Below are positions 1 through 43,418 of a stretch of 64,000 bases of DNA, piece by piece (position 1 is the stretch's first letter; every line of letters starts with the position of its first letter). The notes beneath the pieces were generated by a model. The model made no database searches. It worked only from the letters and a program-made list of their open reading frames with translations, and was not told where the DNA came from. This DNA is from Escherichia coli (lineage in GTDB: Bacteria; Pseudomonadota; Gammaproteobacteria; Enterobacterales; Enterobacteriaceae). Both the position numbers and the translations under genes were made by a program. The DNA is taken from NCBI RefSeq assembly GCF_003334255.1, contig NZ_QOWU01000002.1. One strand, given 5' to 3'.

Positions 1-77
1 ACACCTGCCGAACCCTGGACAATGGGACCGCCATACTGAGTCATATCTCCCTGACGCGCCGCTGGTTTTCCGCTCAT
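1..77 (-). CDS. rhsD: 5' end of Rhs-family protein gene (first ~25 codons; gene continues beyond window start)
   Basis: Reverse complement of 1..77 reads ATG AGC GGA AAA CCA GCG GCG CGT CAG GGA GAT ATG ACT CAG TAT GGC GGT CCC ATT GTC CAG GGT TCG GCA GGT = MSGKPAARQGDMTQYGGPIVQGSAG, recalled RhsD N-terminus; downstream of ybbP in same orientation. Confidence 0.75.
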   Translation of the reverse strand, partial: MSGKPAARQGDMTQYGGPIVQGSAG

Positions 78-507
78 ATAAAGTGCCCTTTTAGTTATTG
101 TTCATATCCCTGTGTTAGCAACAAAAAAAAATAAAATGACACACAAGACCAGCTAATGTATTTATATATTTTTCACATAAACTTATTTGTTCTCAATCAA
201 CAACAACTGTTATTACAGGTCACTTTCAATATTTTATTAAACTAACATTTTTAGCACAGATGAATTCATCATCAACAAATTCACTATATGGATAATATCC
301 ATTCAACGCATATGATTTATGATTTTATTAGTCTGAGTTATTTTTGTAGGGCTATATTTAAAATCAATAAACTCCACCGATTCAGATTAATATCAGCAAT
401 AGAAAGATAGGAAATCACCAATTCAATAACATCATCAATGAAACATATTGTAGAATTAATTTAAACAAGGCGTTCCATTCAACCAGAACGCCCCTTATTT
501 ACTCTCA
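78..507 (-). promoter_or_regulatory. AT-rich intergenic region between ybbP and rhsD (rhsD upstream/promoter region)
   Basis: 430 bp strongly AT-rich, no credible ORF, lies directly 5' of rhsD start on minus strand. Confidence 0.5.
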
Positions 508-2922
508 TCACCCCGCAAACTGCCTGAACAGCGCCTTACCCTTAACCAGTCTCGCGCCCAGCCAGCCGCCGAAAAGCGACAGCAGCAGCGCACCGCTGCA
601 CGGCAGAACAATCCACAATCGCCAGTCTGGCTCCCACGGGAAATCAAACACTTTCGCCTGCAACACTGCCAGTGCCGTTTCCGCACCAATTGCGGCCACC
701 AGGCCGGAAACAAACCCAAGCATGGCGAACTCACACCACAATGTCGTGCGCAGCAGTTTTTTCCCCGCACCGAGTGTGCGCCATACCACCAGCTCCTGAT
801 GACGCTGGCGCATTCCCACCTGCACCTGTGCCAGCAACAGCAACATACCGCAGGCGGTGACCAGCACCACCATCACCTCCAGCGCCCGACTTACCTGCTC
901 CAGCACCTGACCGACCTGTTTTAAAATCGCGCCAATATCTAACAGGCTAATGGTCGGGAACTGGCGGTTGAGTTGCGTCAACATGCCGTTGCCATTCTCC
1001 CAGCGGAAACTGGTAAGCCAGCTCTGCGGTTGCCCGTCTAATGCCCCTTCCGGGAAAATAAAATAGAAATTAGGCCGCAGACTTTCCCAGTCCACTTTGC
1101 GCAGGCTGGTCACTTTAGCGCGGAACTCCTGGGTATCGCCCATAAAAGTCACGGTATCACCGAGGGCAACGTTTAAGCGTTTCGCCAGCCCCTCTTCCAT
1201 CGACACTTCATCGGCTTTTGGCGGCCAGTTACCGGCGACAATCGGATTATGATCGGGCCGCGTATTTTGCCAGGTAAGATTGAGTTCGCGATTAAGCGCC
1301 TCATCTTCATTACCTTCTGTCGGCTTATCGTTAATCGCCGTCAGCCGCGCCCGCACTACCGGATAAAATGATTCCGGGACTATATGATGTTCCGCGAGGA
1401 ACGCTTTTAGCGGTGCTACCTGTTCTGTGGCGATGTTAATTAAAAAGTAGTTCGGGCTTTCTGGCGGTAGCTGCTGCTGCCAGCGGTCGAGCAGATCGCC
1501 ACGCAATACCAGCAACAGCGCCAGCAGCATAAAGGAGAGCGAAAATGCCGAAAGCTGACTTAACGTTGACCACGGCTGACGTAACAGGCGGCTAACCGCC
1601 AGGCGCAGAGGCAGCGATTTCAGCGTCATGCGGCGAAGTACATTCAGCAGCATCCAGCCCAGCACACCGCACAGCAAAGCCAGTACTACCGCGCCCGCCA
1701 GCACCGCCCAAAGCAGCATGCTGCCACCCATTAATCCGGCGAGCAGCAGCACAACCACCACACTGACAATCGGCAGATAAAACTTCAGCGGCCAGACGTT
1801 CGCTACCACATCATTACGTAATACGCGTAAAGGCTGCGTTGCCAGCAACAAGCGATATGGTCGTAGCCCCACCAGCAGCGAGATGACCGTCATGGTGCCA
1901 AGCGCCCACAGCCACGGCCAGAGGCTGGCTGGCGGTAGTGCAGCAGGCAGAACGGGCTTGAGCAGCACCATCAACACGTTTTCGAACAACAGACCTATGG
2001 CCCCACCGGTAACGGCTGAAAGCGTCAGCACCATCAACCACTGACCGACGATTAGCTTACGCAGTTGCGCTCGCCCTGCCCCCAGCGTTTTGAGGATCGC
2101 CACCAGATCGTAGCGACTGCGACAGTAATGATTCATCGCTACCGCCACCGCTGCCACTGCCAGCAGCAAGGTCAGAAGCGCCGAAAGCAGCAGGAACTGT
2201 TGCGAGCGTTCCATCGATCGCCCCAGCGCGCCTTCGTCCTGTTCCAGACCGTACCAGCGTTGTTCGGGTTTAAGCTGAGGTAACAACCATTTCTCATAGC
2301 CGTCGAGCTGGTTCTCGTTGCCGCCGAATTTATAACGCCAGGTGACCCGACTCCCCGGCTGCACGGCTCCGGTTTTATCGACATCCGCCAGATTCATCAT
2401 CAGACGCGGAGCCATCTGGAAGGGGTTAAAACCGGAATCCGGTTCCTGAATCACTTCTCCGGCAATCCGCAAGGTGGCATCGCCCACGTCAATGGTGTCG
2501 TCCGTTTTCAGGTTAAGCAGTGCCATCAGGCGTGGGGCCAGCAATACGCTGCCCGCCTGCGGTTTCAGGCCAGGGGGATTAGTTTGCAGATCGCCATACA
2601 TCGGGTAGATATCATCCACCGCTTTGACGTTCGCCAGCTGCGGTGTGTCGCCTGCAAAGGTCATTGTGGCGAAAGTCAGCTGCTTGCCGACTTTCAGGCC
2701 GCGCTTTTGCGCTTCCTCCAGCCACGCTTGCGGCACTTCGCGTGAACTGCGCAACGCCCGATCGCCCGCCATAAACTCACGGCTTTGCTGGCTTAAGCCC
2801 TTCTCCATGCGATCGCTGATATTGCCCAGCGCCAGCACGCAGGCCACCGCCAGGCTTAGCGCCAGCCAGACAATTAATAGCGACGGCGAACGCCATTCGC
2901 GCCAGAACCAACGTGCAATCAT
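508..2922 (-). CDS. ybbP: MacB/FtsX-type ABC transporter permease (two FtsX domains)
   Basis: 804-aa ORF, length and sequence match recalled K-12 YbbP; 4-bp overlap with ybbA. Confidence 0.93.
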   Translation of the reverse strand: MIARWFWREWRSPSLLIVWLALSLAVACVLALGNISDRMEKGLSQQSREFMAGDRALRSSREVPQAWLEEAQKRGLKVGKQLTFATMTFAGDTPQLANVKAVDDIYPMYGDLQTNPPGLKPQAGSVLLAPRLMALLNLKTDDTIDVGDATLRIAGEVIQEPDSGFNPFQMAPRLMMNLADVDKTGAVQPGSRVTWRYKFGGNENQLDGYEKWLLPQLKPEQRWYGLEQDEGALGRSMERSQQFLLLSALLTLLLAVAAVAVAMNHYCRSRYDLVAILKTLGAGRAQLRKLIVGQWLMVLTLSAVTGGAIGLLFENVLMVLLKPVLPAALPPASLWPWLWALGTMTVISLLVGLRPYRLLLATQPLRVLRNDVVANVWPLKFYLPIVSVVVVLLLAGLMGGSMLLWAVLAGAVVLALLCGVLGWMLLNVLRRMTLKSLPLRLAVSRLLRQPWSTLSQLSAFSLSFMLLALLLVLRGDLLDRWQQQLPPESPNYFLINIATEQVAPLKAFLAEHHIVPESFYPVVRARLTAINDKPTEGNEDEALNRELNLTWQNTRPDHNPIVAGNWPPKADEVSMEEGLAKRLNVALGDTVTFMGDTQEFRAKVTSLRKVDWESLRPNFYFIFPEGALDGQPQSWLTSFRWENGNGMLTQLNRQFPTISLLDIGAILKQVGQVLEQVSRALEVMVVLVTACGMLLLLAQVQVGMRQRHQELVVWRTLGAGKKLLRTTLWCEFAMLGFVSGLVAAIGAETALAVLQAKVFDFPWEPDWRLWIVLPCSGALLLSLFGGWLGARLVKGKALFRQFAG

Positions 2923-42083: not shown

Positions 42084-42101
42084 TACAACGTGTAATCACT
42101 A

Positions 42102-42127
42102 AGGCCGCGTAAGCGGCCTTTTTTATG
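42102..42127 (+). terminator. Intrinsic terminator downstream of acrB
   Basis: Hairpin aaggccgcg-taa-gcggcctt followed by ttttat. Confidence 0.8.
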
Positions 42128-42628
42128 CATAACCTACGAACATTAAGGAGTAATTGAACCACCAACTCAGGATCTCATACGAAAACCAGTATTAACCACG
42201 GATAAAATTCATAAAAAATACTGATTGTTAGTTAATTTATATTAAGTAGCGCTAATAGATTTAATAATCCATAATCATTTAGAGGCTATTCTTAATTATT
42301 TGCGGTAATTCTTTATTCATTCCTCGGTTATTACGTCATATTCAGAGCAATCCTGGTATTAGTGTCACCAATTTCATCTGGCGATAATCCTGAAATGTTA
42401 TGAATAGTTCGAGCAAACTGCTTTTACCTGCTGCGGGTTAGTGCTAGTATGAAAAAGTGAGTCCTGTCCCGCTTCCTTCCTAATTGTAATTTTTCGTAAT
42501 AATGCGATGAAAACCTGCAAAGAGTGGCTTATAGTTAAGCTAACAAACGAGAGGGCAAGTCCAGGTCAGTAAGTTTTTTCCATCCCGAAAGGTGTCCGTT
42601 AGTTCAACCGCTAAGAAGGGGACGCGTT

Positions 42629-43003
42629 ATGGATGAATACTCACCCAAAAGACATGATATCGCACAGCTTAAGTTTCTCTGTGAAACCCTGTATCATGAC
42701 TGCCTTGCAAACCTTGAAGAAAGCAATCATGGCTGGGTAAACGACCCAACCTCGGCGATCAACCTCCAGTTGAATGAACTGATTGAGCATATTGCGACCT
42801 TCGCACTTAATTACAAAATTAAGTATAATGAAGACAATAAGCTCATTGAGCAGATCGACGAATATCTGGATGACACCTTTATGTTGTTCAGTAGTTATGG
42901 TATTAATATGCAGGATCTTCAGAAATGGCGGAAGTCAGGTAATCGACTATTCCGTTGTTTTGTCAATGCGACGAAAGAGAATCCTGCGAGTTTATCTTGT
43001 TAG
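42629..43003 (+). CDS. tomB: Hha toxicity modulator TomB
   Basis: 124-aa ORF directly upstream of hha; matches recalled TomB/YbaJ. Confidence 0.9.
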
Positions 43004-43028
43004 AATTATTACAACCATAGGTAGAAGT

Positions 43029-43247
43029 ATGTCCGAAAAACCTTTAACGAAAACCGATTATTTAATGCGTTTACGTCGTTGCCAGACAATTGACACGCTG
43101 GAGCGTGTTATCGAGAAAAATAAATACGAATTATCAGATAATGAACTGGCGGTATTTTACTCAGCCGCAGATCACCGCCTCGCCGAATTGACCATGAATA
43201 AACTGTACGACAAGATCCCTTCCTCAGTATGGAAATTTATTCGCTAA
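43029..43247 (+). CDS. hha: Hemolysin expression-modulating protein Hha (H-NS co-regulator)
   Basis: 72-codon frame [72 protein letters not shown] inside a longer track ORF. Confidence 0.92.
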
Positions 43248-43418
43248 TAAATAATTCGCTTTCGGAGCTATAACCGGCTGTTTATTAAGAATTTTATACT
43301 TTTTCGCCATGAAGACATACCCTATGTGATCTTTATCACACAGATGTAATGGGAACGTTCTCTTCACTGACTTTTCGTCTTACTGTGTTGCCGCATTTTC
43401 AGCAACCGGAGGTCAGTA

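Follow-up and report, generated by a model that had tools for sequence, protein, structure and literature searches.

The AT-rich acrB-tomB spacer of Escherichia coli as the probable ancestral control region of the tomB-hha operon

Hha acts as a modulator of the silencing that H-NS imposes on virulence genes and on horizontally acquired ones, and control of the operon that encodes it therefore has wide consequences. A closely related described system is the orthologous ymoBA operon of Yersinia pseudotuberculosis, where CpxR~P binds at a promoter motif 56 bp ahead of TSS2 and increases promoter activity (EMSA, reporter); the level of YmoA protein is unchanged by CpxR activation. In Salmonella, only one promoter fragment, located about 78 bp ahead of the tomB ATG, is active, and the more distal one is GFP-negative. 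For E. coli, a constitutive RpoD promoter of tomB-hha has been described, with binding of the RpoD holoenzyme in vitro by gSELEX (Shimada 2014), and the supplementary TSS table of Kim 2012 lists one tomB start supported by 53 reads, giving an 87-nt UTR, and one start for the orthologous gene of Klebsiella pneumoniae, with a 97-nt UTR. RegulonDB lists tomB and hha among the CpxR targets, and the CpxR iModulon includes tomB; a ChIP-exo study does not include tomB among its CpxR 'direct targets' (PMC7657598). The tomB-acrB spacer is also flagged 'HNS', denoting overlapping H-NS binding sites (Shimada 2014). The promoter, the start site, RpoD binding, CpxR dependence and the H-NS flag are all already published.

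In the window, by which we mean the whole stretch of 64,000 nucleotides of E. coli DNA that was analysed, the locus is the acrA-acrB-tomB-hha-maa-ylaC-pdeB region, reverse-complemented with respect to the K-12 MG1655 record, so that position x of the window converts to 523337 - x in NC_000913.3. We conclude that the 545-bp acrB-tomB spacer is very probably the ancestral cis-regulatory region of a core-genome tomB-hha operon, with its main elements already described. The leader is real but ordinary: it is neither a recently acquired island nor a hidden small RNA. The features of the region are collected in Table 1.

Table 1. Features between the end of acrB and the start of maa, in window coordinates.
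Feature	Coordinates	Strand	Description and basis
acrB intrinsic terminator	42101..42126	+	GC-rich hairpin AAGGCCGCGTAAGCGGCCTT followed by a T-run; terminator scan; hairpin in 19/19 genera, identity 0.80
C-rich, G-poor Escherichia-only segment	42128..42204	+	Single-copy; ends at the published Rho termination region
Most AT-rich tract of the spacer	42200..42341	.	GC about 0.29-0.32; block identity 0.41; short CTTATTG and TATAAT-like blocks conserved
Candidate RcsAB/RcsB operator	42342..42355	.	TCAGAGCAATCCTG in E. coli; cross-genus consensus TAAGAATATTCCTA; centred -193 from the start
CpxR-type operator block ATTGTAATTTTTCGTAATA	42483..42501	+	GTAAT-N5-GTAAT at 42486-42500, centred -49.5; identity 0.95
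Sigma-70 promoter of tomB-hha	42507..42535	+	-35 ATGAAA (42507-42512), 17-bp spacer, -10 TATAGT (42530-42535); promoter scan
tomB 5' UTR	42542..42628	+	87 nt, from the mapped start A42542 (Kim 2012)
CCATCCC block in the tomB 5' UTR	42580..42586	+	Near-invariant, identity 0.86; complementary to the SD and start-codon region
Shine-Dalgarno AAGGGGA	42616..42622	+	Ends 6 nt before the tomB ATG (42629); read from the sequence
tomB (Hha toxicity modulator)	42629..43003	+	GC 0.405; ORF list, K-12 annotation, PF10757 homologues 70-100% identical across Enterobacterales
hha (H-NS co-repressor)	43029..43247	+	GC 0.406; K-12 annotation mapped onto the window
hha-maa spacer	43248..43418	+	GC 0.394; hha 3' region and maa promoter with the CRP-type site
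CRP-type site TGTGATCTTTATCACA	43325-43340		Perfect inverted repeat; centred -60.5 from the maa start 43393
IS1 sites	42243-42251, 42497-42504, 42521-42529, 42661-42669, 42848-42857, 43135-43143		

A sequence-only reading had described 42128-42628 as strongly AT-rich and the rest of the stretch up to 43418 as AT-rich compared with its flanks, and a sliding comparison over the whole window confirms the low GC: for the 1291 bp from 42128 to 43418 the GC content is 0.388 against 0.523 for the window, about the lowest for a stretch of that size (0.2% quantile). The 501-bp leader (42128-42628) has a GC content of 0.371, the 0.5% quantile for its size, and the full 545-bp spacer one of 0.378. Within the leader the composition is uneven, with GC 0.315 for 42128-42400 versus 0.439 for 42401-42628, and TpA steps are 2.4 times as frequent as in the window. 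The claimed contrast with the flanks holds for acrB (GC 0.539, GC3 0.59) but is weaker than implied for maa (GC 0.484): because the GC3 of maa is only 0.48, near the 0.46 of tomB and the 0.45 of hha, the downstream edge of the low-GC 'islet' is soft. A second strongly AT-rich stretch lies at window positions 1-700, where GC falls to 0.33 in 500-bp windows, below the tomB leader. The description of the leader as free of ORFs also stands, in that the ORF list contains none of at least 30 aa on the plus strand; the sole leader ORF is a mechanical 40-aa TTG frame on the minus strand (42398-42520), in the least conserved part of the spacer. The K-12 RefSeq annotation has no feature between acrB and tomB.

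An alignment of the leader across 19 genera, from which block identities were computed, resolves the spacer into conserved islands on a background identity of 0.31-0.41. Specifically, the islands are the terminator (0.80), a palindrome (0.73), the CpxR-type block (0.95), the promoter (0.80), CCATCCC (0.86) and the interval from the Shine-Dalgarno to the ATG (0.89).

The earlier proposal of a long regulatory leader holding a promoter is borne out: the start listed by Kim 2012 falls within the leader at A42542, its published upstream sequence being identical to window 42492-42542, and RpoD binds at hexamers identical to the -35 and -10 found here (Shimada 2014). The ATGAAA-17-TATAGT arrangement has 9 of 12 consensus matches with sigma-70 spacing, TTATAGT is present in 76/77 orthologous leaders, and the GGGGA of the tomB Shine-Dalgarno is invariant in 52 taxa. 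We also considered a second promoter equivalent to Yersinia TSS1 and rejected it: an extended -10 occurs in E. coli, Citrobacter and Salmonella, but in merely 17/76 leaders. A PdhR site reported near tomB was likewise set aside, being a weak 8/14 match outside the leader.

Promoter activity for hha is also found inside tomB, where a sigma-70-like TTCGCA-18-TATAAT with 10/12 matches lies at window 42800-42829. Published hha start sites map 115 and 16 nt upstream of hha (window 42914 and 43013), and RpoD and RpoS gSELEX peaks lie between tomB and hha. Because of this promoter activity, these start sites and these peaks within or after tomB, hha may be partly uncoupled from tomB.

Just upstream of the -35 lies the most strongly conserved block of the spacer. 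It contains the tandem pentamer expected of CpxR, GTAA(A) at a spacing of 5-6 bp, as GTAATTTTTCGTAA at 42486-42499. This pattern has 2 matches in the 64 kb against 0.9 expected, and the identical 14-mer is present in 64/77 leaders, always 43 bp upstream of the -10. Erwinia and Apirhabdus have the 14-mer too, placed at -147 relative to the ATG. The distance from motif to transcription start in E. coli is 56 bp (143 - 87), as in Yersinia. From the RegulonDB and iModulon membership together with the binding of CpxR~P at equal spacing in Yersinia, we therefore take GTAAT-N5-GTAAT to be the known CpxR operator. The box fits the documented CpxR control of tomB-hha/ymoBA, and the only addition here is the depth of its conservation.

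The conserved CCATCCC block raises the question of whether the 5' UTR works in cis as a switch on translation, be it through an anti-SD element or an RNA thermometer, with CCAUCCC pairing with the Shine-Dalgarno and start region. The block is near-invariant in untranslated sequence and complementary to both GGGGAUG and AUGGAUG, and predicted ensembles pair it with the Shine-Dalgarno/start region with a mean probability of 0.54. RNAalifold on 52 UTRs gives exactly this pairing, with GGGG and AUG, but as a consensus of 7 pairs at only -3.35 kcal/mol with 0 compensatory pairs, and the E. coli UTR folds no better than shuffled sequences (z = -0.29). Nor does the pairing add occlusion: the accessibility of the Shine-Dalgarno computed from the partition function is 0.347 for the native sequence versus 0.382 with shuffled upstream sequence, and it is lower in 34/52 taxa, which is no excess. 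Since CCATCCC is moreover absent in Erwinia and Apirhabdus, we regard such a switch as unlikely on these folding predictions, and the 5' UTR structure suggested by the sequence-only reading finds no backing in them. Occlusion of the Shine-Dalgarno by CCATCCC is not supported. A possible uORF in the UTR (a GTG at GGTGTCC, 14 codons overlapping the tomB start) was also discarded, an extra T in most other genera leading to a stop within four codons.

Could a separate small RNA or a small protein instead be encoded in the remainder of the leader, expressed perhaps from a distal promoter within its AT-rich half? The spacer is 545 bp long while the UTR takes up only 87 nt, and there is some material for such a unit: a TATAAT-like block near 42264-42273, a TGnTAnnnT extended -10 at 42442-42450, a short SD-plus-TTG mini-ORF at about 42146-42196, an RpoS holoenzyme gSELEX peak located in the acrB-tomB spacer, and the precedent of a second Yersinia start 82 nt upstream of the main one. 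The extended -10 is the poorly conserved element already discounted as a second promoter, and the distal promoter fragment is silent in Salmonella. The mini-ORF, which we reject, lies in a segment absent outside Escherichia and is not kept even in E. albertii. Identity across the candidate regions is 0.02-0.41. A single tomB start is listed in each of E. coli and Klebsiella, the Term-seq data of Adams 2021 contain no 3' end in the tomB-upstream class, and K-12 carries no annotation here. Rfam searched at permissive E-values gives nothing relevant in the leader, only weak chance matches on the acrB terminator. The leader thus matches no known RNA family in Rfam, its UTR shows no stable conserved fold with covariation, and the unannotated small RNA that had been proposed is highly improbable, as is a small protein.

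The remaining alternative concerns the age of the locus. Of 5426 complete E. coli genomes, 5425 carry the 1335-base interval that runs from the stop codon of acrB to the start codon of maa, at 95-100% identity. A TomB profile scan with one genome per species yielded 303 relatives, the best 80 of the 303 representing about 20 genera of Enterobacteriaceae. Wherever the flank is long enough (about 75 loci in about 20 genera) the order is acrB, a spacer of 435-559 bp (GC 0.35-0.40), tomB (GC 0.39-0.46) and hha, with maa downstream in most of them; the acrB 3' end in these loci has a GC content of 0.53-0.60. TomB is 90-100% identical among these genera, and homologues in Proteus and Providencia are 38-44% identical. 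Apirhabdus retains the acrB-spacer-tomB-hha order, and Erwinia amylovora, with another upstream neighbour of tomB, yet retains an AT-rich upstream region and the CpxR-type box. The spacer, tomB and hha have thus kept a stable low GC across the Enterobacteriaceae, which is not a sign of recent transfer.

On plasmids, tomB appears in 14 'plasmid' records only, mostly replicons of 0.1-4.9 Mb, and is thus practically absent from real plasmids. Hha paralogues (54-68% identity), in contrast, occur on at least 5000 plasmids, most of them conjugative: for that reason the Hha family is to be called mobile, while the tomB-hha pair on the chromosome, together with its leader, is ancestral. That the region arrived recently between acrB and maa as a horizontally acquired islet silenced by H-NS, an origin that the sequence-only reading had suggested as possible, is accordingly very unlikely: a GC content 13 points under the window mean, the deviant composition typical of genomic islands, together with the H-NS flag, the mobile paralogues and a GC3 of tomB and hha lower than that of acrAB, is outweighed by near-universal presence, constant gene order, spacer length and GC, the conservation of TomB, its rarity on plasmids, and a reference arrangement that lacks mobility genes and is bounded by no integrase, tRNA or repeat. 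The locus may have been acquired at the root of the Enterobacterales, but it would then not be what is usually meant by an 'islet'.

Nine database clusters with lengths of 185-205 aa carry the TomB (PF10757) and Hha (PF05321) domains together. In the window tomB and hha are out of frame, with start codons 400 nt apart, and a fusion requires both a 1-nt indel and the loss of the stop codon; the double-domain clusters could be real fusions or assembly errors.

The ancestral control region is probably also set apart from the upstream operon. Directly after the acrB terminator comes a segment (42128-42199) that is confined to E. coli and E. albertii in the alignment; a repeat-element origin of 42128-42215 is ruled out by its single copy per genome. 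The segment has the C-rich, G-poor composition of untranslated RNA in which Rho acts (C 19, G 9; C/G = 2.1). A significant Rho termination region has been mapped by bicyclomycin sensitivity at K-12 481133 on the minus strand, which is window 42204 (Adams 2021, supplementary file 2), about 80 nt beyond the acrB hairpin, where the C-rich tract ends. We conclude that 42128-42204 probably insulates tomB-hha from acrAB read-through. Term-seq 3' ends also lie inside tomB, at window 42701 (K-12 480636) and at 42898 and 43030; the first, 72 nt into the ORF, falls within a significant Rho region (Adams 2021) and hints at premature termination early in tomB.

The palindrome island is a candidate RcsAB/RcsB operator. 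The pattern TN(G/A)GA-N4-TC(T/C)N(A/G) has exactly one match in 72/77 leaders, always at the same aligned position and about -190 to -230 from the start, and the consensus of these sites equals the published RcsAB box at 14/14 positions, including the six left free by the search pattern. The strict RcsB box, TN(G/A)GAN4TC(T/C)NA, is satisfied by 41/72 of the orthologous sites, and perfect versions, TAGGAATATTCCTA, occur in Enterobacter or Kluyvera. The E. coli sequence is the most degenerate copy, breaking the strict consensus at the last base only. In the E. coli window the relaxed pattern is not enriched (8 found versus 8.7 expected), and the palindrome is absent in Erwinia and Apirhabdus. 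A literature search found no paper linking Rcs to tomB. A LolCDE inhibitor induces tomB 6- to 11-fold alongside the colanic-acid genes, though the same treatment also activates Cpx. It is conceivable, though less likely than not, that this palindrome, some 200 bp ahead of the tomB start, functions as an RcsB/RcsAB operator within H-NS-bound DNA; in that case Rcs and Cpx would converge on an operon setting the level of Hha. Sensing of the envelope and of surfaces would then be connected to biofilm behaviour and to the silencing of foreign genes across the genome.

In 13 loci of the Enterobacter/Lelliottia group there is a further conserved block, CATTTGCGTAA..GCTCGCA, about 20-40 bp upstream of the CpxR box. 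It is absent from Escherichia, Citrobacter and Klebsiella leaders and may be an extra operator in that clade.

The stretch had further been suggested to be H-NS-bound, which agrees with the literature in the form of the HNS flag for the spacer, a second-hand entry in a single table (Shimada 2014). The tract at 42200-42341 is likely H-NS-bound DNA; a scan for the published 10-bp high-affinity H-NS motif gave no enrichment in the region.

Taken together, these elements suggest the following scheme. Transcription of acrAB would be halted by the intrinsic terminator, and any read-through would be stopped by Rho in the C-rich tract just after it. Next come about 300 bp of very AT-rich DNA, taken to be occupied by H-NS, that bear the RcsAB-like palindrome, then the CpxR operator upstream of the tomB start, and then the sigma-70 promoter, which fires at A42542 and gives a 5' UTR ending in a strong Shine-Dalgarno. 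Because the operon encodes Hha, a partner of H-NS, a feedback loop would arise when H-NS binds here. How much Hha is made would be adjusted by regulators of envelope stress, of which CpxR is known and RcsB is proposed.

Natural E. coli isolates show six independent IS1 insertions at six sites within the 1.3-kb AT-rich stretch. The insertion in GF4 separates the CpxR box from the -35 and that in FAM21845 lies between the -35 and the -10; of the other four, two interrupt tomB, another interrupts hha, and the last falls in the distal spacer. The cluster could be a hot-spot in AT-rich or H-NS-bound DNA, or it could reflect selection for altered tomB-hha expression.

At the downstream end of the stretch, the maa start has been mapped to 43393 with a 26-nt UTR (Kim 2012). 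A perfect TGTGA-N6-TCACA is found at a conserved distance from maa in 40/73 loci. Because the site is kept at a fixed distance while its central 6 bp vary, the pattern suggests class I CRP activation of maa. Eight loci of the Kosakonia/Phytobacter group have an hha-maa spacer of 70-87 bp, versus 140-223 bp elsewhere, without the CRP-type site, and the architecture of the maa promoter must differ in that group.

To the published architecture of tomB-hha, our analysis adds little beyond confirmation, but the cross-genus map of constrained blocks could be useful. The RcsAB-like candidate palindrome, the invariant CCATCCC in the UTR and the recurrent IS1 insertions cutting the promoter, tomB or hha are modest new leads.

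Several known systems resemble this control region in part. The nucleoid-protein gene stpA, which also carries the HNS flag in Shimada 2014, is like tomB-hha in that a component of H-NS silencing has an AT-rich, H-NS-flagged upstream region; as compared with such H-NS-bound nucleoid-protein promoters, autoregulation of tomB-hha by H-NS/Hha is something that we infer. The RcsAB/RcsB operators of wza-cps, flhDC, rcsA and osmB are matched by the cross-genus consensus TAAGAATATTCCTA at all 14 positions, but the candidate tomB box lies far upstream and its E. coli copy is degenerate. Promoters of the Cpx regulon have GTAAA-N5-GTAAA operators, and tomB likewise has a direct repeat just upstream of the -35; unlike in those operators, each tomB half-site ends in T, not A. 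There is also a likeness to ymoB-ymoA. In Yersinia, according to the publication, two starts are mapped (-188 and -106), whereas one is listed in E. coli (-87) and one in Klebsiella (-97); the operon itself is the same, its CpxR motif lies upstream of the main start, and the 56-bp spacing is common to both.
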